From Clostridia bacterium (GTDB lineage: Bacteria > Bacillota > Clostridia > Oscillospirales > Acutalibacteraceae), in contig JAFYMD010000106.1 in NCBI GenBank assembly GCA_017556785.1, forward strand, positions 1 through 35,217: DNA of 35,217 nt, written 5' to 3'. A model generated the notes under the pieces. That model had not been told where the DNA came from, ran no database searches, and saw only the letters and a list, made by a program, of their open reading frames with translations. Within the stretch, counting starts at the first letter, position 1. Every line of letters begins with the position of its first letter. Positions 1,634 to 22,770 of the stretch are shown here, in pieces. A program made the translations under genes and the position numbers.

Positions 1634-1665
1634 AACCAATTCACCTTCTTGCAAAAATACGATTT

Positions 1666-1694: not shown

Positions 1695-1726
1695 CCCGAG
1701 ATTTTACTCCCCCCAAAAAAATCAAG

Positions 1727-1755
1727 TGGATTTTTCACTACTGCTATGGTATAAT
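1727..1755 (+). promoter_or_regulatory. Putative promoter of the dockerin-metallophosphoesterase gene
   Basis: TGGATT (1727-1732), a 17-nt spacer, then TATAAT (1750-1755) with an extended TGg at 1747-1749. The -35 is weak. The RBS AGAGGAG precedes ATG 1808. Confidence 0.4.
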
Positions 1756-1807
1756 GAAATGGCACACGCAGGATGCCACAAGCAAGAAATCATAGAGGAG
1801 CAAAATC

Positions 1808-3163: not shown

Positions 3164-3178
3164 TAACCAAAAAACAAA

Positions 3179-3220
3179 ACAGGCTTACCCGCCACTTACA
3201 ACGGGAAAGCCTGTTTTTTT
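3179..3220. terminator. Bidirectional rho-independent terminator between convergent genes
   Basis: ACAGGCTT (3179-3186) pairs with AAGCCTGT (3207-3214), with inner CCCG/CGGG pairs. It is followed by a T-run (3214-3220) on the plus strand and preceded by an A-rich run, which reads as a T-run on the minus strand. Confidence 0.75.
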
Positions 3221-3222
3221 CA

Positions 3223-5028: not shown

Positions 5029-5093
5029 GATTTCCCCCTTAGCCGTTTAAAAAAACAAAACGGTGGCTTTGGTTGATGATTCACTTCGCTTTT

Positions 5094-5122
5094 TGTATAT
5101 CACACTATAAAGAAAAAGTCAA
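5094..5122 (-). promoter_or_regulatory. Putative promoter of the ABC exporter gene
   Basis: The minus strand reads TTGACT (5122-5117), a 17-nt spacer, then TATACA (5099-5094), preceded by TGa. The -35 lies inside one arm of the upstream terminator hairpin. Confidence 0.4.
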
Positions 5123-5151
5123 TGGTTTTGTAAAAAAACCATTGACTTTTT
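5111..5151 (-). terminator. Rho-independent terminator after the DUF4838-like gene
   Basis: A perfect 16-bp stem, AAAAGTCAATGGTTTT (5114-5129) with AAAACCATTGACTTTT (5135-5150), and a 5-nt loop. On the minus strand it is followed by TTTTTCTTTAT. Confidence 0.65.
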
Positions 5152-5167
5152 AAAAATGTATTTTGGG

Positions 5168-6790
5168 TTAAGCAAGTTCCGCCATTTTATCGGTCACAAA
5201 ATTGTCCACCGTGATTTTCCATTCTTCCACCCGCACCAAACCGCTCTTACGGGCTTGGTCGGCAAATTTGGCAAGCATGGCTTTGCGGTTTTCTTTGGTG
5301 TCGTACTTCAAACATACACCGGTGTAGTAAAGAGGTAGACGGGCGGTTTTAACACGGAACAAGGTTTCGGGGTCGGCTGCCACCGCTGTTTCGGCTTGAT
5401 CGAACAACTCGCTATACTGAAAGAACAGTTCTTCGGTCATAAAGGTTTCGGCGGCATCTTGGGGTTCGCCGAAAATATTTAAAAGACCGCCACCTGCTTC
5501 CATGGCATCGTGCATTACGTTGATATATTCCAAAATAAAGGGAGCGGCTTGTTTATAATACCCCTCTACAAATTCACGGATTACCTCATTTTCGTCCCGA
5601 TAAGGATCCCACATCATTTTGGCAAGCAAATAGCCCCGCAGTTCGCAGAATTCGCCCCCTTCTTCACGGTTGCATTGACTGAACAGCGAACGCACGTTGT
5701 TTTCTACGAAATAGCGAATGTTTTTCGGGATCACCCGCAGATTGGGGAAAGGATTCACCAAATTATGGAACTGAATGCAGTAATCCCACAAGAACAAATT
5801 CCCGCAGATTTCTTTCCAATCCAACATAGCTTGACGGTTGTTCACCGTACCGGGTTGCATACATTCCCCAAAGGGAGTGCCACGGTTGGATTCAATGTTG
5901 CACAACATGATTTGCACGTTGTCGGCAGGTTTCATGTGCTTGGGCGCTTTGGTGGAATATTGATATGCCAGCGTAGAAATAATTTTGTCGGGGAACTCGG
6001 CCGCCACCTTGTTAACAAAGGTAAGCAGAGAGCCCATGGGAGCTTCTTCACGGTCGTCCAACTTTTTGCACTCGTCGCACAAGCAATGGTAGCCGCTATC
6101 GTTGGAGCTCACCGACCAATATTTGGCTTGTGGCTTTTGATCCATGAATTTTTTCAGGTTTTTTACCGCAATGTCAAACACGTCGGGATTGGTGCAACAA
6201 ATTTGGGTGAATTCTTTTTGACGGCCGCCGTTAAAATAGGCAAAGTATTCGGGATGCTCGTCATAATATTCTTTCACCGGCACCAGTTTGTCAAAAGAGT
6301 GATCCCAAAATCCCCACTCGGCATGATCCCACATAGCGGTCATTTTGTGCTTTTCGGCAAAGGTTTTGTCCACAAATCCTTTATAATACACCTCGCGGTA
6401 TTGGAGGATTGGCTGAAATTCATAATCGTCAAACAAGACCGACAAATTGGCGTCAAAGGGGACGTATTCCACGTCTTTGGTGTAATAACGGCACCCTACG
6501 ATCCGTTCCAAGAAATCGTATACCGCATACACGGCGGCTTGCTCATTTTTGGCTTCAAAAATCAGATTTTTGCCGTTCAAGTGATAGGCAAAGCCGGCAT
6601 CACCATGATCGACCTCTACAAAAAATACAAAAGGACGCACGTCTTCTACCGGCGAAACCGCAAGACGGCCGCCTGTGATTTTTTCAATGTAATTCAAAAA
6701 AATGTCGGTGGCGCGGGCCCAATCATTTTTCATAACTACCGCATAGGGTTTTTTGTTTTCGGTAAACACAAAGGGAAGGATACTGCTCAT
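5168..6790 (-). CDS. DUF4838-like protein (putative glycoside hydrolase-related, GH20b-like N-terminus), cytoplasmic
   Basis: 540 aa with no signal peptide. Blocks such as HSFDKLVP, CTNPDV, WSVSSNDSGYHCLCDECKKL and LWDYCIQFHNLVNPFPNL...NVRSLFSQCN...GEFCELRGYLLAKMMWDP match my recollection of DUF4838 proteins. The RBS GAAAGGAG precedes ATG 6790. Confidence 0.65.
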   Translation of the reverse strand: MSSILPFVFTENKKPYAVVMKNDWARATDIFLNYIEKITGGRLAVSPVEDVRPFVFFVEVDHGDAGFAYHLNGKNLIFEAKNEQAAVYAVYDFLERIVGCRYYTKDVEYVPFDANLSVLFDDYEFQPILQYREVYYKGFVDKTFAEKHKMTAMWDHAEWGFWDHSFDKLVPVKEYYDEHPEYFAYFNGGRQKEFTQICCTNPDVFDIAVKNLKKFMDQKPQAKYWSVSSNDSGYHCLCDECKKLDDREEAPMGSLLTFVNKVAAEFPDKIISTLAYQYSTKAPKHMKPADNVQIMLCNIESNRGTPFGECMQPGTVNNRQAMLDWKEICGNLFLWDYCIQFHNLVNPFPNLRVIPKNIRYFVENNVRSLFSQCNREEGGEFCELRGYLLAKMMWDPYRDENEVIREFVEGYYKQAAPFILEYINVMHDAMEAGGGLLNIFGEPQDAAETFMTEELFFQYSELFDQAETAVAADPETLFRVKTARLPLYYTGVCLKYDTKENRKAMLAKFADQARKSGLVRVEEWKITVDNFVTDKMAELA

Positions 6791-6826
6791 AAGGGAAGAC
6801 TCCTTTCACATATAAACTACAGTTTT

Positions 6827-6855
6827 TTAATAACACATCTACCGCTTATTGTCAA
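6827..6855 (-). promoter_or_regulatory. Putative promoter of the DUF4838-like gene
   Basis: The minus strand reads TTGACA (6855-6850), a 17-nt spacer, then TATTAA (6832-6827), preceded by TGt (extended -10). Confidence 0.5.
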
Positions 6856-6861
6856 GAGGTT

Positions 6862-6921
6862 TAGCAAAAAAAGAATAAAGCAAAATCGCAACGGAAACCA
6901 TTTGGTTTTCATTGCGATTTT
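6862..6921 (-). terminator. Rho-independent terminator after the phosphomutase gene
   Basis: AAATCGCAA (6883-6891) pairs with TTGCGATTT (6912-6920). The inner stem is GGAAACCA/TGGTTTTC. On the minus strand the hairpin is followed by TTTGCTTTATTCTTTTTTT. Confidence 0.65.
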
Positions 6922-6930
6922 TATGCGTTA

Positions 6931-8595
6931 TCATGATGCTTGAACAATACCTTCTACGGTTTGTTGCAGGGTTTGGATCTTTTCTTTTGCGATCTGCTTG
7001 GTTTCACCATTGGCAAACAGATAAAATTTCAGTTTCGGCTCTGTGCCGGACGGACGAATGATCACCGAACATTCATCGTTTAGCTCAAATGCCAACACGT
7101 CGGATTTCGGCAAGCCGTCTACGCCGGCCAAATAATCGGTACGATTTCGTAGGTTAAACCCGCCAAACGAATCACCGACACGGCGCATAGAAACCATAAA
7201 ATCTTTCATTTTTTGCATTCCTACTTCCCCTTCAAAGGTAAAGGAAAGAAGGGAATTCAAACTATATCCGTAAGTATTGTAAATTTCGGCCAGTTTTTCG
7301 GCAAGGCTTACGCCGAGGGATCGATAAAAACCGCACATTTCGCAAATCAAAAGCGCCGCATTCACACCGTCCTTATCTCTTACGTGAGAGCCGCTTAAAT
7401 AGCCACAGCTTTCTTCAAAGCCAAAGAGATAGCGTTCCTTTTGTCCCGCTTGCTCCAATTCACCGATCTTCTCGCCAATAAACTTGAAACCGGTCAGCAC
7501 GTTTACCATCTCTACCCCATAGTTTGCGGCAATTTTTTCGGCAAGCAAAGTGGTTACAATGGTTTTTACACAAAGGGGATTTTGGGGCATGGTTCCCATT
7601 TCGGTTTTTCTGCGGCAAATATAATCAAACAGAAGAATGCCTACCTCGTTGCCCGTGAGCAATTGATAATCATTTCCTTGCTTTACGGCTACCCCTACGC
7701 GGTCGCAGTCGGGGTCGGTAGCAAGCAAAATTTCGGCATTGTGCTTCTTGGCGTAGGTTAGTCCCAATGCCATGGCTTCGGGCATTTCGGGATTGGGAAA
7801 CGGGCAGGTGGGGAAATTTCCGTCGTGCTCTGCCTGTTCGTTCACCACAATGATATTTTGATACCCGTTTCGCTTCAAAATATCGGTCACCGGCTCCATG
7901 CCTGTGCCGTTAAGAGGCGTATAAACCACCGAGATGGTTTTGTCGGTGTTCTCGGCAAGAGACAGCTCGGTTACCGAAGCAATGAATTTTTCATACACTT
8001 CTTCGGGAACTTCATGGATCTTCTCCCCTGCTTGTTCGGGCAAGGATTCAAAATAGCCGAGACGGGAAATTTCATGGTAAATTTCGTCCGCCGCTTTGGT
8101 GGTTATCTGACAACCGTCTGCCCCATACACCTTATAGCCGTTATAAACGGCAGGATTATGGGAAGCGGTTATCATAATCCCTGCGTTGCATCCCAACTCC
8201 CGAACCGCAAAAGAAAGGGTCGGGGTCGGAAGAGGACGGTTGAATAAAAATACCGTAATATTTTTGTTGCTTAACACCTTGGCCGCGGTTTCGGCAAACA
8301 GTTTGGATTTGATTCGTGTATCGTAACCAATGGCGACCTTTTTTTCGCCCGAACCGGTATTCGAAATAAAATTAGCAAGTCCCAAGGTGGCACGAGCAAC
8401 GGTATATACGTTCATGCGGTTGGTGCCCGCACCGATTTTGCCACGAAGTCCTCCGGTTCCAAACTCCAATTCTTTAAAAAACGCATCGTTGATTTTAGCT
8501 GAATCGTTTTTGATTGCCAACAGTTCTTCTTTTAAATCTGCATCGGCCAAGGCATTTTGGCACCATTCTTCAAACAAATTGTTGATATTTGCCAT
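6931..8595 (-). CDS. Alpha-D-phosphohexomutase (phosphoglucomutase/phosphomannomutase, PgcA-like)
   Basis: All four superfamily motifs are visible. They are the active-site Ser loop ITASHNP, the metal loop DPDCDR, the sugar loop GFEESCG and the phosphate loop RPSGTEP. I start it at ATG 8595 (MANINNLF) because GAGGAG lies 6 nt upstream. The track start at 8613 adds 6 codons without an RBS. Confidence 0.9.
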   Translation of the reverse strand: MANINNLFEEWCQNALADADLKEELLAIKNDSAKINDAFFKELEFGTGGLRGKIGAGTNRMNVYTVARATLGLANFISNTGSGEKKVAIGYDTRIKSKLFAETAAKVLSNKNITVFLFNRPLPTPTLSFAVRELGCNAGIMITASHNPAVYNGYKVYGADGCQITTKAADEIYHEISRLGYFESLPEQAGEKIHEVPEEVYEKFIASVTELSLAENTDKTISVVYTPLNGTGMEPVTDILKRNGYQNIIVVNEQAEHDGNFPTCPFPNPEMPEAMALGLTYAKKHNAEILLATDPDCDRVGVAVKQGNDYQLLTGNEVGILLFDYICRRKTEMGTMPQNPLCVKTIVTTLLAEKIAANYGVEMVNVLTGFKFIGEKIGELEQAGQKERYLFGFEESCGYLSGSHVRDKDGVNAALLICEMCGFYRSLGVSLAEKLAEIYNTYGYSLNSLLSFTFEGEVGMQKMKDFMVSMRRVGDSFGGFNLRNRTDYLAGVDGLPKSDVLAFELNDECSVIIRPSGTEPKLKFYLFANGETKQIAKEKIQTLQQTVEGIVQAS

Positions 8596-9644
8596 TATAA
8601 CTCCTCGGTGCACAAAGCGAGCAGTTCATCCACGTGAGCGGTAGCAACACACTCAACCGTATCACTTGCGCCATAGTAAATTTTCACCTGACCGTCATCT
8701 TCCAAAATCATGCCGCCGGGGAAAATCACGTTTTGTCTGAATCCCTCGTCGGTTTCATAGGGAAGTTCGGGAGCGATCAAAGGACTCTTGCTCATACCAA
8801 TTACCTTGGAAGGGTCTTCCAAATCCAGCAGAGCGATCCCTGCGGTATAGCGCTTAGTCCAGGTAAGATCCCAAGTGGTTTGCCCTCTGCCTTCTCGTTC
8901 CACGTCAACCGCGTGGAAGGTAATCAACCAGCCTTTATCGGTTTTCACGGGAGGGGCGGCAGGGCCGATTTTGTTGTTGGCATACGGTACGTTTTCGACC
9001 CCCAGCACCAGTTGGCTTTCCCCCCAGAATTTCAGGTCGGGAGATTTGGAAATCCACATATCAAAGCGGTCTCTGCCGCCGCGACCGTATACAGGGAAAG
9101 GCCGTTCCAAACGATAGTAATATCCTCCGATTTTTTCGGGGAAAAGCACCATGTTGCGGTTGTCGGGCACGGTTGCGCTAATGATTTCGTAACCGGAAAA
9201 ATCGTCCTTTACCTTGGCAATTGCCCCACGAATACCATGATGAGTGTCCATAGCAAGGCAAAGATAAATCTCACCGTCGATCACGGTCAATCGGGGATCA
9301 TACAAGCGCAAAATGTCGGGTACGTCTTTTTCTTTCCCCAGCATATTTTTGCCCACTTGATAGTCCACCAGGGGAACTTCTTTTACCTGCCAATTGGTAA
9401 CACCGTCATCGCTGAAAGCAATGCCAACGGAAGTCCCTTTAAACCCAATTTTTTGGTTAACAAATTTATCGCTGTCGGTTCCGTAATCGTTACGGAACAC
9501 CATCACGTATTTTCCGTTGATTTTTTCAACGCCTGCGTTAAAAATCAAAGCGGCGTCATAAGGAATATCATCCTTGGTTAAAATCGGTTTTTCTAATTTT
9601 TTAAGACAATCTGCACTTTTCAGAATGGGTTCCCAAATAGCCAT
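8595..9644 (-). CDS. GH130 family beta-mannoside phosphorylase-like protein
   Basis: About 349 aa and cytoplasmic. The N-terminus KPILTKDDIPYDAALIFNAGVEKINGKYVMVFRND and the overall five-bladed-propeller-like repeat pattern resemble GH130 enzymes (mannosylglucose, mannooligosaccharide and Man-GlcNAc phosphorylases). Start is at ATG 9644 (MAIWEP); the track start is a TTG 9 nt upstream. The stop TAA overlaps the downstream ATG (TAATG at 8597-8593). Confidence 0.75.
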   Translation of the reverse strand: MAIWEPILKSADCLKKLEKPILTKDDIPYDAALIFNAGVEKINGKYVMVFRNDYGTDSDKFVNQKIGFKGTSVGIAFSDDGVTNWQVKEVPLVDYQVGKNMLGKEKDVPDILRLYDPRLTVIDGEIYLCLAMDTHHGIRGAIAKVKDDFSGYEIISATVPDNRNMVLFPEKIGGYYYRLERPFPVYGRGGRDRFDMWISKSPDLKFWGESQLVLGVENVPYANNKIGPAAPPVKTDKGWLITFHAVDVEREGRGQTTWDLTWTKRYTAGIALLDLEDPSKVIGMSKSPLIAPELPYETDEGFRQNVIFPGGMILEDDGQVKIYYGASDTVECVATAHVDELLALCTEEL

Positions 9645-9682
9645 AAAAAACAACCTTTCTTTATTTTAAAATTTTCAATTTG

Positions 9683-9711
9683 ATTATACAATATGGAATC
9701 ATATATTGCAA
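9683..9711 (-). promoter_or_regulatory. Putative sigma-A promoter in front of GH130-phosphomutase
   Basis: The minus strand reads TTGCAA (9711-9706), a 17-nt spacer, then a consensus TATAAT (9688-9683). It sits about 40 nt upstream of ATG 9644. Confidence 0.6.
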
Positions 9712-9723
9712 GAATAAAACGAT

Positions 9724-10851
9724 TTATTGATTCGAGGCAACTGCTTGATAGGCAATATGCAACCAACCTGCATGCTCTTGGTTACCGGTGTCGGAGCCGC
9801 CCCCTTCGGGCAACCAGCTTTCCCGTACCACTTGGTCGCAACAATCTTCCAAGAAAATCAGCAATTCTTGCAAGCGGTCGGTATAGCCCATTTTTTTGCA
9901 ATACATCATTTCCCAAGCAAGCCCTTTGCCCAGCACGTGGGTACCTTTGGCGGCAGGGGCAAGTTCGGTTTCAAAGGCGGTGAAACTGTCTAACATTTGG
10001 TATTTGCCATAATATTCCACATAACCGTATTTCAGATAAGCCTGATAGGTGTTCTCTAACATCTCGGGGTCGGCGGCATACCAATCGCAACTCATGGGAG
10101 CCAAATTCACCCACGAAAACCCGAGAATATCCCGACGGGCCGCGTTGGGATTGGCATCAATAGACTTTTGACTGCGACCAATAAGCTCGGCATACATCTT
10201 TTTGCCGTCTACCTCTCCTACCAGGAAGTTATGCACACCCTTTACAATGGTAGCGGCGGCAGATTCCCACACCTTGGCGTTTTCGGGGTCAGTTTCGGCT
10301 ACCAACTGTGCCAACTCGTGCAAGGCTTGGGAAGCGTACACGTTGGTGAGCAAGTCGTAGCATTGGAAATACGAACGGTCACGGGAATGCTCTAAACTTT
10401 GGTTAAACAACAAACCGTAGGGATTATCCAAAGCCCCATTTTGCAAAAAGTAGTGGGCAAAGATTGTTACCCGCTCATAGGAATTTTCCAAAAATGCCTT
10501 GTTTTCGTCGGTTTTGGGAGCGGTGTTGGCAAAGGTCACCCACGTATGCAAAAAGAAGAAGGTGGCATCTGCCTGACATTTCATGCAGGGATTACGATGG
10601 GCAGGGTCCAGCACGTGAATAAGATAATCAAAGCCGTGTTGATTGTGATAATCCACGGTGTATTCCATGATTTTGCGGGCAAGGTCATAGTCCCCACGCA
10701 AAACGTGGCACAGTGCGTGTACCGAAGCATCCCGTCCGTACATGCCGCCGTAAGCACCCGTTACCGAAGTGGCGGCATAGCCGTCTTCCCGAATGCGGTC
10801 GGCCAGGGAACGATAGGTGTTTTCAAACAGCAAATGAATTTTTTCGGTCAT
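9724..10851 (-). CDS. Uncharacterised enzyme-like protein, paralog 1 of 3 (putative six-hairpin glycosidase-like fold), cytoplasmic
   Basis: 375 aa with no signal peptide and the RBS GAGGAGAA. It shares these blocks with 10921-12057 and with the middle of 12072-15020: GMYGRDASVH, LEHSRD, YDLLTNVYASQALHELA, GFSWVNLAPMSCDWY, GKGLAWEMMYCK and GGGSDTGNQEHAGW. Confidence 0.8.
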   Translation of the reverse strand: MTEKIHLLFENTYRSLADRIREDGYAATSVTGAYGGMYGRDASVHALCHVLRGDYDLARKIMEYTVDYHNQHGFDYLIHVLDPAHRNPCMKCQADATFFFLHTWVTFANTAPKTDENKAFLENSYERVTIFAHYFLQNGALDNPYGLLFNQSLEHSRDRSYFQCYDLLTNVYASQALHELAQLVAETDPENAKVWESAAATIVKGVHNFLVGEVDGKKMYAELIGRSQKSIDANPNAARRDILGFSWVNLAPMSCDWYAADPEMLENTYQAYLKYGYVEYYGKYQMLDSFTAFETELAPAAKGTHVLGKGLAWEMMYCKKMGYTDRLQELLIFLEDCCDQVVRESWLPEGGGSDTGNQEHAGWLHIAYQAVASNQ

Positions 10852-10877
10852 AGTAATTTCTCCTCATAAGGGATTGC

Positions 10878-10912
10878 GACAAAACCACCGACCAAACAAA
10901 GTCGGTGGTTTC
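10878..10912 (-). terminator. Possible weak terminator or attenuating hairpin between paralog 2 and paralog 1
   Basis: AAACCACCGAC (10882-10892) pairs with GTCGGTGGTTT (10901-10911) around an 8-nt loop. The T-tract on the minus strand is short (TTTTGTC) and lies partly within the stem. Confidence 0.4.
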
Positions 10913-10920
10913 CGTAGCAA

Positions 10921-12057
10921 TTATTGTCCCAATTCGGGATAAATGGTTTTATGGGTATACAGCATCCAACTGGCGTGTTCTTGGTTGGCGGTGTCCGAGC
11001 CGCCGCCCACGTAGTGCCAGGTTTCACGATACATATCTTCGCTGAAATCTTCCACGAATTTGGTCAGTTCCGCAAGACGTTCGGCGTAACCCATCTTTTT
11101 GCAATAGAGCATTTCCCAAGCAAGACCTTTCCCGATAACGTGACCGCCACGGGTAATGGGCGCAAGGTCGGTTTCAAATTGGGTGCAAACGTCCAACATA
11201 TAGTTGGTGTTGTAATAATCGCAAGCGCCGTATTTCAGATACATTTGATAGGTGTTTTCCAAAATTTCGGGGTCGGCACCATACCAATCGCAACCCATGG
11301 GAGCAAGGTTCACCCAAGAGAAGCCGCGAATATAGCGAGTAGTAGCATTGGCATTTTCGTGCACTGCTTTGTGGCTACGACCGATGAGTTCGCAATAGAT
11401 TTTTTTGCCGTCTACTTCGGCGGTCAAGAACTTATGCACACCGCCCACGATTTTGGTGGCGGCCGCTTCCCATTTTTTAGCATTTTCGGGGTCGCAATCG
11501 GCTACAAAGGTTGCCAATTCGTGCAGGGCTTGAGAAGCATACACGTTGGTGAGCAGGTCGTAGCAATAAAAGTAAGAGCCGTCGCGGGAATGTTCTAAAC
11601 ATTCGTTATACAACATTTCATAGGGGTTATCCAAATTGCCGGCATCCAAATAATAGTTGGCAAATTTTTGAATCATGCTGTAAGAACTTGCCAAAAATGC
11701 GTCTTTTTCGGGAGAAGCAGGTGCGGCATTCATATACATCACCCAAGCGTGGATGAAGAAGAAAGCGGTATCGGCTTGCTTACGCAAGGAAGGAGGGGCA
11801 TCGTTTTCGTAGATGACGTGAATCGCGAAATCGTAGCCGTGGGTTTCGTGGTAGCCGATGATATAGTTCATCAGTTTACGGGCTTGTTCGTAATCGCCGT
11901 GGGCCACGTGACACATGATTTGAATGGAAGTATCACGGCAGAACATACCGTTATAGTGACCGGTAATAGAAGTATCGGCATAGCCGTCTTCGTGGGTGCG
12001 GTCAATCATGGATTGATAGGTTTTGTTATACAAAGAAATTGCTTTTTGCGTTACCAT
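10921..12057 (-). CDS. Uncharacterised enzyme-like protein, paralog 2 of 3, cytoplasmic
   Basis: 378 aa with no signal peptide. The upstream gene's stop TAA is followed immediately by AGGAG and, 9 nt later, the ATG, indicating operon coupling. A 75-aa central block (LEHSRD...ELIGRS) is 59/75 identical to paralog 1 by hand alignment. Confidence 0.8.
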   Translation of the reverse strand: MVTQKAISLYNKTYQSMIDRTHEDGYADTSITGHYNGMFCRDTSIQIMCHVAHGDYEQARKLMNYIIGYHETHGYDFAIHVIYENDAPPSLRKQADTAFFFIHAWVMYMNAAPASPEKDAFLASSYSMIQKFANYYLDAGNLDNPYEMLYNECLEHSRDGSYFYCYDLLTNVYASQALHELATFVADCDPENAKKWEAAATKIVGGVHKFLTAEVDGKKIYCELIGRSHKAVHENANATTRYIRGFSWVNLAPMGCDWYGADPEILENTYQMYLKYGACDYYNTNYMLDVCTQFETDLAPITRGGHVIGKGLAWEMLYCKKMGYAERLAELTKFVEDFSEDMYRETWHYVGGGSDTANQEHASWMLYTHKTIYPELGQ

Positions 12058-12071
12058 AGCAAGAGTCTCCT

Positions 12072-15020
12072 TTAGAACGTAATGTCAGCATACAGCATGT
12101 TATGGTCAGAGTGACCGTTGTTGACCATGGTGCCTTTGCCTACCGTCCATTTTTTGCATACCACAATGTTGTCAATGGCGCCGTCTTCGCCGTTGGTGAC
12201 AAAGGTGTTGGTAGCATTGTTTACAATGTTGCCGCCGAACACGTTAAACGCCGCGAAATTAGAGCAGTTAAAGTCGCCGGTGATAATGAAGTTGTCCAAA
12301 CCGCTCAAACGATCGGCAATTTCTTGAAATTGACCCGATTGCAAGCTGGTCCAAGTGGTGTGGGTATTAAAGAAGTTTACCATTTGGGTGCCCACCTGAA
12401 TCACAGCATGGCCGCATACCCGTTGTTCTTCGGTACCCGAGGGCAATTGGAAGGTGCTGTAGCTTTTAATGGGGTATTTGGATATAATGGCGTGACCGTA
12501 GGCACCGCCTTCTAAATCAATGGCTTTGGAATAGCCGTAGTACCAACCAAGCTCGTCTGCCAACAACTTGGCTTGGTCTTTTTTGCCGGTACGAATGGTG
12601 TTGTTGTCCACTTCTTGCAAGCCGACAATATCCAACCCGGCATCGGTAATATCTTTGGCGATGGTAGCAGCAGAGGCATCACTTAAAATATGAATGTTAA
12701 AGGTAGCAACTCGCAGGCCGTTCACTTCTTCCACGGGAGGTTGTGCGTTGGGGTCTTTTTTGGTCAGTTCGGGGTGGCAATATTTATGAGCAAACAACAT
12801 CCAGCTGGCGTGTTCTTGGTTGGCGGCGTCAGAGCCGCCGCCGCTGGCTTGCCAGGTTTCACGATACATTTGGTCGCTGTATTTTTCAATGAACGCTTCC
12901 AGCGTACGAATGCGATCGGTATTCCCTACCATTTTGCAATACATCAATTCCCAAGCAAGGCCTTTCCCAATGATTTCGCGAGCGCGAACGTTGGTGGAAC
13001 CGGTGTAGTTGGTGTGTACTTCCAGCATTTTGTATTTACCAAACCAACTGCCTGCGCCGTATTTCATATACAGTTCGTAGGTGTTAGCCATAATTTCTTC
13101 GTCCATGGCATACCATTCGCAACCAACGGGAGCCATGTTTACCCAAGAAAATCCTTGTACAAATTTATCGTTTTCAATGTCGATCAACTCGGCATACATC
13201 TTTTTCCCGTCAATTTCGGTTACCAGATGCTTGTGAACACCTTGTGCGATCAAGTCTGCCCCTTCTCGCCACGCTTTGGCACGGGCGGGATCTTTGGTGG
13301 CAAAGTATTTTGACAACTCGTACCATGCCTGAGAAGCATATACGTTGGTCAGAAGGTCGTAGGAATTCCATTCTCGTTTATCGCGAGAGTGTTCCAAATA
13401 GGGGTTTTCCATCAATCCTTTTTCCCGATTGAAATACATATCGTCAATAAAGTAATCGGCAAAATCTTTGACCTTGTCTTCACTGGCATTCAGCAAAGCG
13501 GTTTTTTCAGCCGAAGCGGGCGCTTTGGTCGCATACATATACCAAGCGTGTAAGAAGAAGAAGGTGGTGTCGGTTTGCAGTTTATCGGAATAGGGCTTTT
13601 TGTTTTCCTGCATGATGTGCAGCACGTAATCTTTTTTGTATTCCTTGTGATAATCCACAATATACTTCAAGATCTTGGCGGCGTAATCATAATCTCCCTG
13701 GGCTATGTGTGCCATAACTTGAATGGAGGAGTCACGGCCAAACATACCCACGTAAGCCCCGTTGAGCGAGGTTTGAGCATACCCGTTTTCATGAGTGCGG
13801 TCTAACATGGATTGATAGGTTTCGGCATACAGCGATTGCCCTTTTACCGAATACAAGGGCAATTCGTGCGTTACGGGTTCAATGGGATCGTCGGCAGTTT
13901 CTTTGTCTGCGGGGAATTTGTCGATTTTACCTACCACATGTTGCAGTACCAGCAAAGCATCAGCGGCAGAAATATTACCGTCGTCATCTACGTCGGCCAA
14001 TTCTTTTTGTTGGTCGGTCATGGCTACCTTGCCAACCACTTGCTTGAGAATCATCAACGCATCAGCCGCAGAAATTGCGTTGTCTCCATCGGGATCACCG
14101 TACAACGGTTTTTCAGAGACGTTGTCCAACGCGTTAAAAGCCTTTACCGCATCCACATAGGTTTGATAATTTTCAACATCATTTACACCGGTGGCAAAAA
14201 CGTAATGGTACAGCATTTGGTCGATTTTCACCAAAGCATCCCGAGAATCGGTGGTAATGGTACCCAGGGCAGTAATGGCATCTTCAATGTCGAACCGTTC
14301 TTTATGTTCTTCACGGTAGATCAGATCTTCGATTCTGTTTTTGCAATAAATCAATTTTTGAATATCTACCACCTTACCACGATCACTGCTGTTCATGGCA
14401 ACGTATTCGTTATAAAGGCCCATAACCCGTTCTTGGTCAGCCAAGGTAATTTCTTCCACCGCAGGCAAAGCGGCAATTTTTTCCGACAATATCTCATAAG
14501 CGGGACGGGTATCTGCAGCCGCACCGATCAATTCAAAGGCTGCAACGGTATCACCAAACCGTTTCCATCCTCCGTCGTTGTTCCAAGCGGTACAGGAATA
14601 CCCGGTAACCGTTGTCATGCCGTTCCACACCGCACGATTGGCAGTATGAACGGAAAAAGAATACCGTTCACCCGCCGTCACGGCTACGGCCGTAGAGAAG
14701 AGCAGTTCAAACCAATCGGTTTTTGCATCAACAAGAGTTAGGGTTTCGGTATAAATTTGAGTACCCGTGTCGGGCGTACCGGAATATACCGTAACATCAA
14801 TGGTGTTATTGGCAGATTCGTTTGCCAAATATACTTTGATTCCTTCCAGAACCTCCGAACCCGGCACGAATTCTTGACCTGCCATATTGGCACCGCTGAT
14901 TAAAAAAAGCGGAGTAGTCGTGTTTGTGGACGAGGTAAAGGCTGTTTCTGCTACGGTAGCAGTCACCATAACCGAAAAGAACATTACCAAGCACAAAACG
15001 GTGGCAATCAAACGTTTCAT
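12072..15020 (-). CDS. Secreted 982-aa multidomain protein: signal peptide, beta-sandwich-like module, helical repeats, internal dockerin, paralog-3 enzyme-like module, C-terminal EEP (endonuclease/exonuclease/phosphatase) domain
   Basis: I start it at ATG 15020 (MKRLIATVLCLVMFFSVMVTATVAE, a classic signal peptide) with AGGAGGA 8 nt upstream. The track start at 15083 adds 21 implausible codons. Domain evidence is given in the separate entries below. Confidence 0.85.
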   Translation of the reverse strand: MKRLIATVLCLVMFFSVMVTATVAETAFTSSTNTTTPLFLISGANMAGQEFVPGSEVLEGIKVYLANESANNTIDVTVYSGTPDTGTQIYTETLTLVDAKTDWFELLFSTAVAVTAGERYSFSVHTANRAVWNGMTTVTGYSCTAWNNDGGWKRFGDTVAAFELIGAAADTRPAYEILSEKIAALPAVEEITLADQERVMGLYNEYVAMNSSDRGKVVDIQKLIYCKNRIEDLIYREEHKERFDIEDAITALGTITTDSRDALVKIDQMLYHYVFATGVNDVENYQTYVDAVKAFNALDNVSEKPLYGDPDGDNAISAADALMILKQVVGKVAMTDQQKELADVDDDGNISAADALLVLQHVVGKIDKFPADKETADDPIEPVTHELPLYSVKGQSLYAETYQSMLDRTHENGYAQTSLNGAYVGMFGRDSSIQVMAHIAQGDYDYAAKILKYIVDYHKEYKKDYVLHIMQENKKPYSDKLQTDTTFFFLHAWYMYATKAPASAEKTALLNASEDKVKDFADYFIDDMYFNREKGLMENPYLEHSRDKREWNSYDLLTNVYASQAWYELSKYFATKDPARAKAWREGADLIAQGVHKHLVTEIDGKKMYAELIDIENDKFVQGFSWVNMAPVGCEWYAMDEEIMANTYELYMKYGAGSWFGKYKMLEVHTNYTGSTNVRAREIIGKGLAWELMYCKMVGNTDRIRTLEAFIEKYSDQMYRETWQASGGGSDAANQEHASWMLFAHKYCHPELTKKDPNAQPPVEEVNGLRVATFNIHILSDASAATIAKDITDAGLDIVGLQEVDNNTIRTGKKDQAKLLADELGWYYGYSKAIDLEGGAYGHAIISKYPIKSYSTFQLPSGTEEQRVCGHAVIQVGTQMVNFFNTHTTWTSLQSGQFQEIADRLSGLDNFIITGDFNCSNFAAFNVFGGNIVNNATNTFVTNGEDGAIDNIVVCKKWTVGKGTMVNNGHSDHNMLYADITF
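12075..12722 (-). other. EEP (endonuclease/exonuclease/phosphatase) domain
   Basis: Residues ~767-982. Motifs are LRVATFNIH, DIVGLQEVD, GHAIISKYPI, NFFNTHTTW, IITGDFNC and the terminal SDHNMLYADITF. These are the canonical EEP fold motifs (N/E metal site, GDFN, SDH). Confidence 0.8.
12765..13859 (-). other. Paralog-3 copy of the uncharacterised ~375-aa module
   Basis: Residues ~388-752. Motifs are GMFGRDSSIQ, LEHSRD, YDLLTNVYASQAWYELS, GFSWVNMAPVGCEWY, GKGLAWELMYCK and GGGSDAANQEHASW. The 75-aa central block is 42/75 identical to paralog 2 by hand alignment. Confidence 0.8.
13911..14105 (-). other. Dockerin module (internal position)
   Basis: YGDPDGDNAISAADALMILKQVVGKVAMTDQQKELADVDDDGNISAADALLVLQHVVGKIDKFP. 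Both Ca-binding loops are canonical. Confidence 0.85.
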
Positions 15021-15054
15021 AAAAAAAGTCCTCCTATTACTTGACATTATCTCT

Positions 15055-15083
15055 ATTATAAAGTAAATTATAATAGAAAACAA
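15055..15083 (-). promoter_or_regulatory. Putative promoter of the 982-aa gene / paralog operon
   Basis: The minus strand reads TTGTTT (15083-15078), a 17-nt spacer, then TATAAT (15060-15055). It lies about 35 nt upstream of ATG 15020, in the divergent intergenic region shared with the AraC gene. Confidence 0.45.
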
Positions 15084-15135
15084 GAGTTATATTTTGCTTT
15101 TTTCATATATTTTTAACTTTCGGAGGGCAAATACG

Positions 15136-15984
15136 ATGGCAATTATTTTTCACGAAGTCAGTCAAATCTTTACCGACACCTTACCCGGCATTTCTTTAAG
15201 CCATCAAGAAGCCAAGGTCAGCGGCGGACATTTGCCTCCTCATTGGCACGAACGAATGGAAATATGGTTGATTCGCGAAGGGAAAATGACCATTTCTTGT
15301 GACCGAGACATCTTTGACGTGGGTGCCGGTGACGTATTGATCTTCAATCCCGGGGAAGTACACTCCTGTCGCGTAACCAAAGCCCCCTCGTCCATTGAGT
15401 GTGCCATTTTTGATCTGACCTCGTTGTTGACCAATCGTCCCGCCGACATTGACCCGCTGATTCGCTCCATTTCTTCGGGGAAGGTGCGATTCCAACACAT
15501 TGTAAGAAAAAACGAAGACGTTCATCAATTGATCGAACAACTGACCGCATGCAACCACACCACCCCTATCAACATTATGCGGGCAGAAGGTTTGCTGCTG
15601 CAATTGCTGTCGGTCTTGCTGGAAGGGTACGTTTCGGTAAAAACCTATTCGGTTCCTCACCATTTGCAAGAAGTCAGCAGTTTGCTGGAATACATCCACG
15701 AACATTTGGCTGACGATATTTCGCTGGAAAACCTGGCCAACCGCGCTTGTATGTCCCCCTCGTATTTTTGCCGATGGTTCAAGGGTGCCGTAGGGGAATC
15801 TCCCATGGCCTACGTGACCACGTTGCGCATCAACAGGGCCTACGAACTGTTGTCAAACGGCTGTTCGGTCACCGAAACCTGTCACAAAGTCGGCATTGAC
15901 GATCTCAACAACTTTAATCGGCAATTTCGCAAGCGAGTAGGTGTTTCCCCCTCTAAAATAAAAGCCGAGACCAAACGCGGATGA
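15136..15984 (+). CDS. AraC family transcriptional regulator (cupin sensor + HTH)
   Basis: The N-terminal cupin is HWHERMEIWLIREGKMTISCDRDIFDVGAGDVLIFNPGEVHS. The C-terminal AraC double HTH is LENLANRACMSPSYFCRWFKGAVGESPMAYVTTLRINRAYELL...NNFNRQFRKRVGVSP. Start is at ATG 15136 (MAIIFHEV) with GGAGGG 8 nt upstream. It is divergent from the 982-aa gene. Confidence 0.85.
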   Translation: MAIIFHEVSQIFTDTLPGISLSHQEAKVSGGHLPPHWHERMEIWLIREGKMTISCDRDIFDVGAGDVLIFNPGEVHSCRVTKAPSSIECAIFDLTSLLTNRPADIDPLIRSISSGKVRFQHIVRKNEDVHQLIEQLTACNHTTPINIMRAEGLLLQLLSVLLEGYVSVKTYSVPHHLQEVSSLLEYIHEHLADDISLENLANRACMSPSYFCRWFKGAVGESPMAYVTTLRINRAYELLSNGCSVTETCHKVGIDDLNNFNRQFRKRVGVSPSKIKAETKRG

Positions 15985-16031: not shown

Positions 16032-16060
16032 TTGCAAACCGTTCCAATCAATGGTACAAT
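16032..16060 (+). promoter_or_regulatory. Putative promoter of the DUF1846 gene
   Basis: TTGCAA (16032-16037), a 17-nt spacer, then TACAAT (16055-16060), preceded by TGg (extended -10). Confidence 0.6.
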
Positions 16061-16087
16061 AGAATTTGTTTTTAGGGGGGCGACGAA

Positions 16088-17572
16088 ATGACAAAAGGTT
16101 TTGACAATGACAAGTATTTGGCCATGCAATCCGAACACATTCGAGGACGCATTGACCAATTCGGCGGTAAGCTGTATTTGGAATTCGGCGGCAAATTGTT
16201 CGACGATTTTCATGCGGCTCGGGTATTGCCCGGCTTTTTACCCGACAGCAAACTGCAAATGCTGTTGCAACTGAAAGAACAAGCCGAAATTGTAATTGTA
16301 ATCAGCGCCACCGCCATTGAAAAAAACAAGGTGCGCGGTGACCTGGGAATCACCTACGACCAAGACGTACTGCGATTGATCGACGCTTTTCGCAGTGTAG
16401 GCTTGTACGTGGGTAGTGTTGTGCTTACCTGTTTTGCCTACCAACCCGCCGCTGAAGCATTTCAAACCCGATTGGAAAAATTGGGTGTACGGGTATACCG
16501 TCATTATGTCATTTCGGGGTATCCCTCCAACGTTGATCTCATCGTCAGCGATGACGGTTACGGAAAAAATCAATACATTGAAACTTCTCGTCAATTGGTG
16601 GTGGTCACCGCTCCCGGACCGGGTAGCGGCAAAATGGCAGTTTGTTTGTCTCAGCTGTATCACGACCACAAGCGTGGCGTACAAGCAGGCTATGCCAAAT
16701 TCGAAACCTTCCCTGTTTGGAATCTGCCGCTAAAGCATCCCGTGAACATGGCATACGAAGCCGCCACCGCCGATTTAAACGACGTAAATATGATCGACCC
16801 TTTCCACCTGGAAGCCTACGGCAAAACCGCCGTGAACTATAACCGCGACGTGGAAATTTTCCCTGTGGTCAGCGCCATGATGGAACGAATCTTGGGGGAA
16901 TCGCCCTATAAATCCCCCACCGACATGGGTGTCAATATGGCAGGCAACTGTATTGTAGACAACGACATGGTTTGCCAAGCCGCCAAAAGTGAGATCGTAC
17001 GGCGTTACTACGCCGGGTTGTTGGCGCAAAAAAACGGCAACGGCTCCGAAGAAACGGTGCGAAAATTGGAACTGCTTATGAAGCAAGCAGGCGTTACGGT
17101 AGCTGATCGCAAAGTCGTTGCCGCCGCCAATACCCGAGCCGAAGAAACAGGCGAGCCCGCCGCCGCCATAGAGCTGCCCGACGGTCGTATCATTACCGGC
17201 AAGACCTCACCCCTTATGGGTGCTTCTGCCGCTTTGTTGCTCAACGCATTAAAAGCTTTGGGAGGCATTGACAAAGAAATCCACCTGCTGTCCCCGGTGA
17301 TTATTCAACCCATTCAGCACCTGAAGGTCGACCACCTGGGCAACCACAACCCCCGCTTGCACACCGACGAAATTTTGTTGGCGTTGTCTATTTCCGCCGC
17401 CACCAATCCCACCGCTGAAGTGGCAATGCAACAACTCAATCTGTTAAAGGATTGCCAAGTGCACTCCTCGGTAATTTTATCCCCCGTGGATCAAAAAACC
17501 TTCAAAAACTTAGGAATACAACTGACCATGGAGCCGGTTTATCAATTCAAAAAACTGTTCCACAAAAAATAA
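16088..17572 (+). CDS. UPF0371 / DUF1846 family protein (conserved, function unknown)
   Basis: 494 aa. Blocks are FDNDKYLAMQSEHIRGRIDQFGGKLYLEFGGKLFDDFHAARVLPGF, VVTAPGPGSGKMA, GYAKFETFPVWNLPLKHPVNMAYEAATADLNDVNMIDPFHLEAYG, SPYKSPTDMGVNM and DHLGNHNPRLHTDEILLALSI. These match the highly conserved UPF0371 family known from streptococci and clostridia. Confidence 0.9.
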   Translation: MTKGFDNDKYLAMQSEHIRGRIDQFGGKLYLEFGGKLFDDFHAARVLPGFLPDSKLQMLLQLKEQAEIVIVISATAIEKNKVRGDLGITYDQDVLRLIDAFRSVGLYVGSVVLTCFAYQPAAEAFQTRLEKLGVRVYRHYVISGYPSNVDLIVSDDGYGKNQYIETSRQLVVVTAPGPGSGKMAVCLSQLYHDHKRGVQAGYAKFETFPVWNLPLKHPVNMAYEAATADLNDVNMIDPFHLEAYGKTAVNYNRDVEIFPVVSAMMERILGESPYKSPTDMGVNMAGNCIVDNDMVCQAAKSEIVRRYYAGLLAQKNGNGSEETVRKLELLMKQAGVTVADRKVVAAANTRAEETGEPAAAIELPDGRIITGKTSPLMGASAALLLNALKALGGIDKEIHLLSPVIIQPIQHLKVDHLGNHNPRLHTDEILLALSISAATNPTAEVAMQQLNLLKDCQVHSSVILSPVDQKTFKNLGIQLTMEPVYQFKKLFHKK

Positions 17573-17581
17573 TTCAAACGC

Positions 17582-17625
17582 AAAAAACGATCCCCGAAAG
17601 CAACCGTTTTCGAGGATCGTTTTTC
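17582..17625. terminator. Bidirectional rho-independent terminator between convergent DUF1846 and GH13 genes
   Basis: AACGATCC (17586-17593) pairs with GGATCGTT (17614-17621). The inner stem is CGAAA/TTTCG. An A-run lies upstream and a T-run downstream. Confidence 0.75.
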
Positions 17626-17629
17626 ATTC

Positions 17630-19495
17630 TTATAACCAATCAAACAACACCAATCCACCGCTCATGGGAGGCAACAACAAGTCATTGTCCGTGCACTCTC
17701 CCAGCAAGGTCGTAAGGTGTTTTCCGTTGCGCGGCAGGGAAACTGCCGTTTTTTTGTTACCGCGGTTGACCGCGACCAACAAGGCTTGGTTGTCTGCCAC
17801 ACGCATATACGCTACCGTATTTTGATCGGCATACAACGGCACCATGTCGCCTTCCTTCAACATCGGCAGTTCGGTTCGCCATGCGCCCAATCGCTTATAC
17901 CATTCCTTCAGTTTGGGACACGGAGGCGTGTTCCAAGCCATGGGTGCACGGTTAAAGGGATCGCCGTACCCTTCCATTCCCAATTCGTCACCGTAATAAA
18001 CGCAAGGCACACCGGGTAGGGTGTACTGCAACAACGTTGCCAACTGCACCATGGCTTCTCCCCGCTTATATTGGTCAGCGTGCAAGCGAGTCTTGGACTG
18101 CCATGCCCGATCTCGTCCTTGCTCCGCCTCCCCTGCCAATGCGGTGATCAACCGCTTGGTGTCGTGAGTGCCCAAGTGATTCATAAGGGTGTGCAAAGCG
18201 GGGGCAGGGTAGTTTTCTGCCACCGTCATGACCGTTTCCAAAAAGGCATTGCCGTCGCCGTTGCGCACAAAATCAAGTACCGCATTGGCAAAGGGATAGT
18301 TCATAACGCTGTCTAACTGCGTTCCCAACAAATAACTGCGGCGGTTGCCGTAACTGATTTTGGTGGTGGCGTCTTCCCACACCTCTCCCAAAATCATGCC
18401 TTGCGGGTGATTGGCTTTGACACCGCGCCGCAAATAGTCCAAAAACAGGTCGGGCAATTCATCTGCCACATCTAACCGCCAACCGTCGGCACCTCGGTTC
18501 ATCCAATAGGCCAATACGCCGTCGTGCCCCGTAATAAACGAAAGGTAGTCGGGGTCGGTTTCGTTGACTTCGGGCAGGGTTTGAAATCCCCACCAAGAGT
18601 GATATTTTTCGGGGTAGTTAATAAAGGTGTACCAAGAGCGATAGGGGGAATCGGGACGATTGACTGCACCGTTTGGTTCGTACCGCAGTTGTTTGTTAAA
18701 GTACACGCTGTCGCTTCCCGTGTGGGAAAATACGCCGTCTAACAAAATACGTATTCCCACCGCATGAGCGGCGGCGCACAAATCTTTGAAATCTTGCTCG
18801 GTTCCCAAAAGCGGATCAATCTTTTTGTAGTCGGCGGTGTTGTACCGATGATTGGAATGTGCCTCAAAAATAGGATTTAAGTAGAGGCAGGTAACCCCCA
18901 ACTCTTTGAAATAAGGGAGTTTGCTTTCTATCCCTTTTAAGTCTCCGCACCAATAATCGTTGTTCAGACGACAGGGCTCTTGCTCGGTTTTGTCTACGTT
19001 AAAGGCAGGTTGTCCCACAAATTCAGAGTACAAATACCGCTCGGCGGGCACGTTTTGTTTTGGCGTACCCGAAGCACAAAATCGGTCGGGAAAAATTTGG
19101 TACATAATACCGCCTTTTAACCAATCGGGGGTCTGAAAGTCGGCACGGTACACCGTCAATTGCCATTCGGGGCCGTCGGCTTGCATAATTCCCGCGCCGC
19201 CTTTTCCGCAAGTGAGCGGATTGTGACCATAGGGGGTGTCGAAGTAAAAGTGGTAAAAATACAACCCTGCTTCGTTGGGGGTGATGATACACTCCCACCA
19301 CCAGCCGTTTTGGTCACCCTCTAAGGTGCGCCAAACGTCTTGCCATATTTCTGCTTTGCCGTCTTTGTGATAAATCAGCCAAGCACGACTGCAATCTAAG
19401 GGCAAATATAGCTTAAAACTGACAGGAGTCCCCGCCGTAACCGCCCCAAAAGGGGTTTTATAGCGGGGATCTTGTGAATAGTAAGGGGTTTTCAT
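17630..19495 (-). CDS. GH13 alpha-glycosidase (neopullulanase/cyclomaltodextrinase-like), cytoplasmic
   Basis: 621 aa with no signal peptide. The four GH13 conserved regions are DGVFSHTG (I), GWRLDVADE (II, nucleophile Asp), GEVWED (III, acid/base Glu) and NHLGTHD (IV). It has an N-terminal beta-domain typical of neopullulanase-type enzymes. Only 3 nt separate it from the glgP stop. Confidence 0.9.
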   Translation of the reverse strand: MKTPYYSQDPRYKTPFGAVTAGTPVSFKLYLPLDCSRAWLIYHKDGKAEIWQDVWRTLEGDQNGWWWECIITPNEAGLYFYHFYFDTPYGHNPLTCGKGGAGIMQADGPEWQLTVYRADFQTPDWLKGGIMYQIFPDRFCASGTPKQNVPAERYLYSEFVGQPAFNVDKTEQEPCRLNNDYWCGDLKGIESKLPYFKELGVTCLYLNPIFEAHSNHRYNTADYKKIDPLLGTEQDFKDLCAAAHAVGIRILLDGVFSHTGSDSVYFNKQLRYEPNGAVNRPDSPYRSWYTFINYPEKYHSWWGFQTLPEVNETDPDYLSFITGHDGVLAYWMNRGADGWRLDVADELPDLFLDYLRRGVKANHPQGMILGEVWEDATTKISYGNRRSYLLGTQLDSVMNYPFANAVLDFVRNGDGNAFLETVMTVAENYPAPALHTLMNHLGTHDTKRLITALAGEAEQGRDRAWQSKTRLHADQYKRGEAMVQLATLLQYTLPGVPCVYYGDELGMEGYGDPFNRAPMAWNTPPCPKLKEWYKRLGAWRTELPMLKEGDMVPLYADQNTVAYMRVADNQALLVAVNRGNKKTAVSLPRNGKHLTTLLGECTDNDLLLPPMSGGLVLFDWL

Positions 19496-19498
19496 GGG

Positions 19499-22663: not shown

Positions 22664-22770
22664 GGGTAACATTCCTTTCATTTTGTTTTTGTGGGAACGC
22701 AGATGACACAAATATCCGATTTACCGCTTTTCACCAAACAGAAGTATCAGAGGAATGTTTGATCATCTTC

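Follow-up and report, generated by a model that had tools for sequence, protein, structure and literature searches.

What would a bacterium of the Clostridia gain from three adjacent copies of one enzyme-like module, two of them lacking a signal peptide and one exported, when that module has no family name? The question is raised by a 35,217-nucleotide (nt) stretch of DNA, hereafter the window, from an uncultured Clostridia bacterium of the gut, family Acutalibacteraceae (GenBank assembly GCA_017556785.1, contig JAFYMD010000106.1, positions 1 to 35,217 of the forward strand), in which three successive minus-strand genes at 9724-10851, 10921-12057 and 12072-15020 (copies 1, 2 and 3) encode the same module of ~375 amino acids (aa). 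The answer towards which we lean, if not strongly, is that the module represents an unnamed family of inverting glycosidases, related to glycoside hydrolase (GH) family GH125 and clan GH-L-like, whose members are most likely exo-alpha-mannosidases in a proposed pathway for mannose-containing glycans.

A preliminary description of this DNA, made without database searches, had recognized the three genes as a tandem triplication, and the list of open reading frames (ORFs) and the degree of identity both bear this out. Over the whole module, copies 1 and 2 are 58-59% identical (59% over hidden Markov model (HMM) match columns), copies 2 and 3 51%, and copies 1 and 3 47%, which as a comparison of sequences is far beyond chance. 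A MAFFT alignment of copies 1 and 2 with the central part of copy 3 contains 150 invariant columns, and all of the motif blocks quoted in the preliminary description are present and invariant in the three copies, including GM(Y/F)xRD, LEHSRD, YDLLTNVYASQA, GFSWVN, GKGLAWE, GGGSDxxNQEHA and GDY(D/E)xA. Copy 1 (375 aa) and copy 2 (378 aa, the protein used for structure modelling) consist of the module from their very start and have no hydrophobic leader, as expected of the cytoplasmic proteins they had been taken for. Copy 3 was likewise correctly placed behind a signal peptide and a dockerin: the mechanical ORF list begins it at a TTG (12072-15083, 1003 aa), its real start is the ATG at 15020 with AGGAGG in front, and its product opens with MKRLIATVLCLVMFFSVMVTATVA, a typical signal peptide that we read from the sequence at 14946-15020 (minus strand; cleavage site approximate) and that has equivalent leaders in homologues at a locus in another genome, L001. 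The end given earlier for the triplication, 13859, marks only where the module begins within copy 3, and the gene continues to 15020. Because copies 1 and 2 each have a counterpart in L001 (61% and 82% identical, respectively), the duplication appears to be older than the split between the window genome and L001. A mobile element or a chance repeat as the source of the three copies was ruled out by the 47-59% protein identity, the L001 counterparts and the residues conserved in all copies.

The preliminary description could put no characterized family name on the module, and neither could we. Nothing significant was found for it in Pfam, in NCBIfam or among PDB sequences (phmmer). The sole glycosidase hint in Pfam was PF06824 (GH125) for copy 2, at E 0.031, and copies 1 and 3 gave no PF06824 match at E<=1. 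In NCBIfam the GH125 model gave no match, and the only match of any kind was TIGR01577 (GH15-type; E 0.045, 12.3 bits against a cut-off of 820.7). A word-indexed search of 5.8 billion proteins returned 68 clusters, all unnamed or "hypothetical", and an exhaustive profile search of 1.84 billion representatives returned 333 clusters at E<=1e-3 and 241 at E<=1e-10 (counted at 50% identity), whose names in RefSeq and UniProt are "hypothetical" or "uncharacterized". GH176 belongs to clan GH-G and is unrelated, and no description of module proteins was found in the searchable literature. As far as names in Pfam, NCBIfam, PDB, RefSeq and UniProt and this literature go, the family has not been described; in fold, clan and probable chemistry it is of known kinds. 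Genome matches place it in uncultured Acutalibacteraceae, Ruminococcaceae, Oscillospiraceae and Lachnospiraceae of gut and rumen, in Cohnella, and in the actinomycetes Actinoallomurus, Labedaea and Jatrophihabitans, and one Acutalibacteraceae locus (L014) is 96% identical to the window.

The fold of the module is predicted with confidence. An AlphaFold2 model of copy 2, computed from a 49-sequence alignment, has a mean predicted local distance difference test score (pLDDT) of 95.5 and a predicted template modelling score (pTM) of 0.94, and its 12 main helices form an (alpha/alpha)6 barrel. The preliminary description had proposed modelling of this kind followed by a structure search, with a small six-hairpin glycosidase as its expectation. 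In a Foldseek search of the model against PDB, ranks 1-7 are all GH125 structures (3qt3, 2p0v, which is BT3781, 2nvp, 3qt9, 5m7i, 3on6 and 3p2c), with E-values of 5e-8 to 4e-7, template modelling (TM) scores of 0.58-0.70, 11-14% identity and a probability of 1.00. We conclude that the module is, very probably, an (alpha/alpha)6 glycoside hydrolase.

The same family emerges from sequence profiles. When the 49-sequence family profile was searched against all PDB chains, only two entries appeared at E<=10, both of them GH125 (2p0v, E 0.11; 3on6, E 0.25), and the match pairs TGaYeGMfvRDasiQV with TGDIHAMWLRDSGAQV. For direct profile comparison, a GH125 profile was built from ten full-length genes on annotated plasmids; a 75-aa BT3781 fragment used as a seed in the protein index had retrieved only fragments of <=132 aa, unfit for profiles. 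Using hhalign in local mode with low mact (the -glob mode yielded a meaningless 22-column alignment), the 49-sequence family profile aligned with GH125 over 334 columns at a probability of 36% and P 3.9e-4, and a 128-sequence family profile aligned over 339 columns (family positions 2-377, GH125 positions 68-465) at a probability of 79% and P 1.5e-5. The score of the latter alignment was 48.2, set against 16.3 for a reversed GH125 control and 11.5-23.4 for 30 column shuffles. As the real score lies far above these controls, the similarity to GH125 is real, remote and full-length. Four methods thus put GH125 nearest (Foldseek, the family-profile search of PDB, the Pfam hint, and hhalign with shuffled controls), and the resemblance that had been offered as weak has gained in substance: GH125 is, in our judgement with good confidence, the closest known family. 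A distant sister of GH125 would be expected to be clan GH-L-like and probably inverting.

The alignments also point to candidate catalytic residues, given here in copy 2 numbering, with conservation taken from an hmmalign alignment of 98 near-full-length members. Both hhalign runs pair R41-D42 with GH125 R109-D110, N171 with N278, E345 with E439 and W364 with W453. The catalytic base of GH125 is Glu393 in CpGH125, equivalent to Glu439 in BT3781 (PMC9883506, PMC4978465). Glu345, with which it pairs in the alignment (not in a three-dimensional superposition), is 99% conserved over the 98 members and is likely the general base. Of the two motif pairings suggested earlier, that of GMxxRDxS with AMWLRDS held, since the N-terminal substrate-binding motif of GH125, TGDIxAMWLRDS, pairs with TG(A/H)Y(x)GM(F/Y)xRD(A/T/S)S in all three comparisons, the search of PDB with the family profile and the two hhalign runs; that of HSRD with RPSDD was recovered in one of the two hhalign alignments only. 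The catalytic acid of CpGH125 is Asp220 (PMC9883506), which belongs to the RPSDD motif, and for the module Glu155, Asp159 and Asp167 are the candidates for this role; because the two profile alignments disagree here, we claim no single residue as the acid. Comparable to the module is MmpH, a mycobacterial endo-alpha-1,4-(3-O-methyl)mannosidase, which is a stand-alone (alpha/alpha)6 protein of ~373 aa, structurally near GH15 and GH125, in which the base Glu is conserved and the acid has moved to a different position (PMC9883506). The MmpH structure gave no sequence match to the family profile among PDB chains at E<=10, nor to a single-sequence search.

Conservation over the family is otherwise high: D96 and K310 are present in 100% of members, R41 and W314 in 99%, R20 in 98%, E155 and E223 in 97%, R158, D167 and E360 in 96%, D355 and N358 in 95%, and D42 in 70%. 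In the secondary structure of the model, the conserved residues are found either at the N-terminus of an even-numbered helix or in a loop or strand immediately preceding one, an arrangement suggesting that they share one face of the predicted barrel, the face on which (alpha/alpha)6 glycosidases keep their active site. Copy 1 keeps 24 of the 24 key family residues. Since D96, E155, D167, E223, K310, E345, D355 and E360 are kept in all nine paralogues from the window, L001 and a further locus, L058 (the only one of these to deviate, at positions 151 and 159), the three window copies are probably all active.

A barrel of this kind need not be a hydrolase, and the module could instead be an AGE-like epimerase or isomerase, a GH65- or GH94-like glycoside phosphorylase, or a lyase. 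An AGE-family structure (3gt5) does occur at rank 39 of the Foldseek list, an AGE gene stands in the cluster around a family member in Actinoallomurus, and phosphorolysis is already used in the window operon through its GH130 enzyme (see below). The 38 structures ranked above 3gt5 are, however, all glycosidases, and a secreted, dockerin-borne copy fits the hydrolysis of a polymer, not the isomerization of a sugar. GH65-fold phosphorylases use phosphate in place of the base Glu, and in the module the Glu that pairs with this hydrolytic base in GH125 is retained by 99% of members. A non-hydrolytic function is accordingly the explanation in which we place least belief, and we think it very unlikely.

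If the module is a hydrolase related to GH125, it might be no more than a very divergent GH125 subfamily, which CAZy would list under GH125 and not as a new family. A full-length colinear alignment in which the R-D motif, the Asn, the base Glu and the Trp are all paired would be expected of one, as would GH125 structures as best matches and the GH125-like gene neighbourhoods described below. The distance is nevertheless considerable. Of the three copies, one scores with PF06824, at 13.6 bits where the cut-off is 23.4, and the others not at all; the match to GH125 structures amounts to 11-14% identity; and in the PDB search with the family profile no GH125 chain is significant. The best 150 matches of the exhaustive profile search all have E<=3.5e-29. 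Neither the RPSDD signature of GH125 nor its ERKxEIDS block is conserved in the family, and the annotation pipeline PGAP, which readily names GH125 proteins, labels module proteins "hypothetical". Like the GH125 exo-alpha-1,6-mannosidases (CpGH125, SpGH125 and BT3781; PF06824, clan GH-L), which are metal-independent and inverting and act poorly on aryl mannosides, the module is a single-domain (alpha/alpha)6 barrel that occurs in both cytoplasmic and secreted forms; it is encoded beside GH38, GH130, ROK and importer genes of the ABC type and is associated with an endonuclease/exonuclease/phosphatase (EEP) phosphoesterase. Unlike them, it is ~50-100 residues shorter, has an invariant set of its own (D96, E155-H-x-R158, D167, K310, W314 and D355-x-x-N-x-E360) and carries in many members a DUF4082 insertion at position ~86. 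We consider membership of GH125 itself quite improbable, and retain a separate family as the preferred reading.

What substrate might such an enzyme serve? In the window, the three copies head an operon on the minus strand in the order copy 3, copy 2, copy 1, GH130, phosphoglucomutase/phosphomannomutase, DUF4838 protein and terminator. The two genes directly downstream of the copies are those that had been named earlier. The mannoside phosphorylase-type GH130 gene (8595-9653; PF04041, E 3.6e-32) has phosphorylases as its best PDB relatives, including TM1225, UhgbMP and Lin0857. The phosphomutase gene (6931-8613) encodes PGM_PMM domains I-IV and likely starts at the ATG at 8595 (MANINN); this start would overlap the GH130 stop codon by one base (8593-8597) and, if right, suggests translational coupling. 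The last gene (5168-6790; PF16126, E 2e-96) encodes a DUF4838 protein of the GH163/GH185 beta-N-acetylglucosaminidase-like type, in which we found no signal peptide, so that we place it in the cytoplasm, and which has no match among PDB sequences. DUF4838 is the catalytic domain of GH163 (BT1035), which cleaves GlcNAc-beta-1,2-Man in complex N-glycans, and of GH185 (Sp_0475), a cytoplasmic 6-sulfo-GlcNAcase (PMC10570127). A DUF4838 gene adjoins the module also in L014 and L019. Just past its stop codon, an intrinsic terminator-like hairpin with a 17-bp stem followed by a T run (5113-5151, minus strand) is the predicted close of the operon. Upstream of copy 3, a divergent AraC-family regulator gene with AraC_binding and HTH_18 domains lies at 15094-15984 on the plus strand; of 27 Clostridia loci, 8 likewise have AraC genes flanking the module, as does L001.

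Copy 3 proved to be a more elaborate protein than the signal peptide, dockerin and module that had been noted. In coordinates of the 1003-aa ORF, the signal peptide is followed by a DUF4082-like beta domain (aa 78-149, 14637-14852; PF13313 at E 0.0025 and 1.8e-4, below the gathering score), a type I dockerin (aa 328-382, 13938-14102; PF00404, E 2.7e-9) whose duplicated calcium-binding repeat scores 37.5 bits against a cut-off of 22.9, the catalytic module (aa 411-774, 12762-13853; family HMM positions 2-377, E 1.5e-168) and a C-terminal EEP domain (aa 793-994, 12102-12707; PF03372, E 4e-16, 59.8 bits against a cut-off of 24.5). Neither the EEP domain nor the weak DUF4082-like domain had been noticed before. 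The AlphaFold2 model of the EEP domain has a pLDDT of 96.4, and in a Foldseek search its top matches are all EEP enzymes, with 4ruw first and BT3783 (3mpr) second at E 5.5e-14. Another BT3783 entry, 4c1r, carries the title "mannosyl-6-phosphatase". A phmmer search with the EEP domain gave no match among PDB chain sequences. A second secreted phosphoesterase is encoded near the operon, at 1808-3163 on the plus strand; it combines a dockerin with a calcineurin-like metallophosphoesterase domain and is in keeping with a phosphorylated glycan as substrate.

Related architectures recur across the family, in which FIVAR, SLH, dockerin, EEP, esterase and NPCBM_assoc domains are found as partners of the module. 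In the large dockerin proteins equivalent to copy 3, two tandem EEP domains are present in L001 (at 16058-17341) and in L015 (at 8706-9983), and a 2069-aa relative (P0091) has an esterase after its EEP domain. Many members carry an insertion of 150-600 aa at module position ~86-88 that often contains DUF4082; in these distant members DUF4082 thus lies inside the catalytic domain, as opposed to its position N-terminal to the dockerin in window copy 3. A 2447-aa protein (P0069) combines two complete modules, each split by a long insertion, with FIVAR and DUF4082. DUF4082 may be an uncharacterized substrate-binding partner of the module barrel.

The association of a GH130 enzyme, a GH125-type barrel and an EEP-fold phosphoesterase has a parallel in the Bacteroides yeast-mannan locus MAN-PUL2, which comprises BT3780 (GH130), BT3781 (GH125), BT3782 (GH76) and the EEP-fold phosphatase BT3783 (Cuskin 2015, PMC4978465). 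The same trio is clustered in the window operon. The parallel is suggestive and holds at the level of families only. The window system is Gram-positive and dockerin-based and has no SusC/D, GH76 or GH92; its EEP domain is fused to the barrel rather than being a separate protein; and its GH130 enzyme is closest to phosphorylases and only 22% identical to Bacteroides GH130.

Gene neighbourhoods in other genomes provide a further indication. In L001, an AraC gene, two dockerin-module genes and a 1191-aa dockerin-module protein with two EEP domains accompany two cytoplasmic copies; L058 contains the module, GH130 and a HAD hydrolase; and L019 contains an EEP-bearing copy, the module and DUF4838. 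In two Oscillospiraceae loci (L022 and L026), genes for a solute-binding protein and a permease are found together with a GH38 alpha-mannosidase gene that overlaps the start of the module gene, and L026 has a ROK kinase in addition. In three Cohnella loci, a GH2 beta-mannosidase gene with an Ig_mannosidase domain lies ~600 nt upstream of the module. A further locus, L056, has the order GH20, GH18, SSF transporter, GH29, GH3 and module, and in L002 the module lies among mobile elements. Bona fide GH125 genes retrieved for comparison adjoin GH38, GH92, GH76, GH130, ROK and EEP genes, and in at least three unrelated lineages the family is thus found in neighbourhoods resembling those of GH125. 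Known cytoplasmic alpha-mannoside operons of Firmicutes and actinobacteria consist of an ABC importer, GH38, GH125 and ROK, and comparison loci with GH125 include one from Deinococcus (L010; ABC, GH125, GH38) and one from Streptomyces (L012; ROK, LacI, GH125). In L022 and L026 the module occupies the usual GH125 slot of such operons; the window operon differs from these N-glycan and alpha-mannoside operons in having neither GH38 nor an importer. A GH76 gene near a family member in L032 was discounted, as it is ~8 kb away. The activity is most likely that of an exo-alpha-mannosidase doing the job that GH125 does elsewhere.

Several observations weigh against this assignment, and part of them would suit a module that shares the fold and hydrolytic chemistry and acts on another sugar, whether as a GH78-related rhamnosidase-like enzyme, as an alpha-glucosidase-like enzyme (GH15, GH63, GH100) or on some unusual microbial or host glycan, with the nearby mannose genes handling only a side branch of the substrate. 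GH15, GH100, GH116 and GH63 structures trail GH125 in the Foldseek list by only 1-2 orders of magnitude in E-value, and the weak TIGR01577 match is likewise to GH15. Distant members of the family match PF17389, the GH78 six-hairpin domain, which has the (alpha/alpha)6 fold in common with the module, at 19-33 bits, some of them above the cut-off of 24.5; these matches are partial, covering only model positions ~93-220 of 339, or about a third. A protein with such a GH78-like stretch (P0088) matched PDB sequences only through dockerin and EF-hand regions. L057 contains sulfatases, fucosidases, GH106 and a sialidase-like BNR gene and is not mannose-specific. The context in Actinoallomurus iriomotensis (L055) is one of amino sugars and differs in this from the mannose contexts of Firmicutes, with LacI, an SSF transporter, an AGE-type epimerase, NagB, SIS, NagA, a ceramidase-like gene, an unknown 497-aa gene and the module in this order at 510-11647. 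CBM_4_9, DUF642 and GH127 genes are also among the neighbours of the module, and many loci give no substrate clue.

Other points bear on the GH125 assignment and the proposed pathway directly: hhalign gives a probability of no more than 79% with the larger profile and of 36% with the smaller; the PF06824 score of copy 2 is below its cut-off; RPSDD267 of GH125 pairs with EHSRD159 in the 49-sequence alignment and falls in a gap in the 128-sequence one; fewer than half of the family members (42%) have Asp159; the window operon has no sugar importer; and the EEP domain of copy 3 is 23% identical to the BT3783 orthologue of B. finegoldii at a BLASTP E-value of 0.17, with TDP2, nocturnin and sphingomyelinase within ~10-fold of BT3783 in Foldseek, a difference that does not separate them.

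A different sugar as the substrate is disfavoured on several counts. The three window copies have no PF17389 match at E<=1, and the Foldseek top 50 for copy 2 includes no GH78 structure. GH78 enzymes are large multidomain proteins. GH125 is nearest by all four methods, and GH130, GH38 and GH2 beta-mannosidase neighbours recur in three unrelated lineages. We therefore hold a change of sugar to be unlikely, while regarding it as the strongest competitor to an alpha-mannosidase.

Returning to the mannose-glycan reading, what the following pathway says of hydrolase activity, of the sugar and linkage attacked, of the part played by the EEP domain and of the sequence of steps is inferred. The secreted, dockerin-anchored copy 3 would, together with its fused EEP domain, attack an extracellular mannose-containing and possibly phosphorylated glycan, for which fungal mannan, phosphomannan and N-glycans are candidates. 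The resulting oligosaccharides would be imported, after which cytoplasmic copies 1 and 2 would remove alpha-mannose and the cytoplasmic DUF4838 enzyme beta-GlcNAc. The remaining beta-mannoside would be phosphorolysed by GH130 to mannose-1-phosphate, which the phosphomutase would convert to mannose-6-phosphate. The preliminary description had read the presence of the module both outside and inside the cell as the signature of a dedicated glycan pathway, and this proposal is strengthened by the DUF4838 gene, the terminator and the mannose-related neighbours in other genomes.

Further genes were noted in the remainder of the window. On the minus strand, a NagA-like amidohydrolase (22859-23923) and a NagB-like glucosamine-6-phosphate isomerase (23920-24642) are encoded, so that GlcNAc catabolism genes lie ~8 kb from the operon, and next to them a dockerin-bearing esterase or S9-type hydrolase (24670-25668). 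An AraC gene at 25796-26554 lies upstream of a gene on the plus strand (26656-31425) for a secreted protein of 1589 aa that has the N-terminal and catalytic regions of GH116, a weak PA14 match, two CBM6 domains and a C-terminal dockerin. Beyond the AraC gene at 15094-15984, the region 16088-21901 encodes a DUF1846 protein, a GH13 amylase-type enzyme and a glycogen/maltodextrin phosphorylase, which are apparently unrelated to the operon. Four minus-strand ORFs of 168-269 aa (22154-22711, 32179-32988, 33319-33825 and 33874-34587) have no Pfam match at E<=0.01.

A more ambitious version of our reading would make the module a new family of clan GH-L and the fusion with EEP and dockerin a cellulosome-style machine that uncultured Oscillospirales of the gut would use at the cell surface for mannose-rich, possibly phosphorylated glycans of fungi or the host, possibly differing from known GH125 enzymes in the linkages it cleaves or in making phosphodiester and glycoside cleavage work together, and with the DUF4082 insert as a new substrate-binding module. 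We offer it tentatively, as we think that it falls somewhat short of an even chance. The finding is incremental in kind, as new glycoside hydrolase families are described every year, yet it is concrete. If our prediction is right, it would provide CAZy with a new family for ~330 clusters that are now "hypothetical", and compact inverting alpha-mannosidases are of use in analysing glycans and remodelling glycoproteins. Barrel, EEP domain and dockerin are joined in one natural protein, and this suggests that phosphate or phosphodiester and mannose are removed in a coupled manner at the cell surface, which offers an idea of how Gram-positive bacteria attack yeast phosphomannan. For the uncultured Oscillospirales of gut and rumen, which are abundant but poorly annotated, the family would fill a gap in mannan and N-glycan pathways, and genomes that seemingly have no GH125 might use the module enzyme instead.

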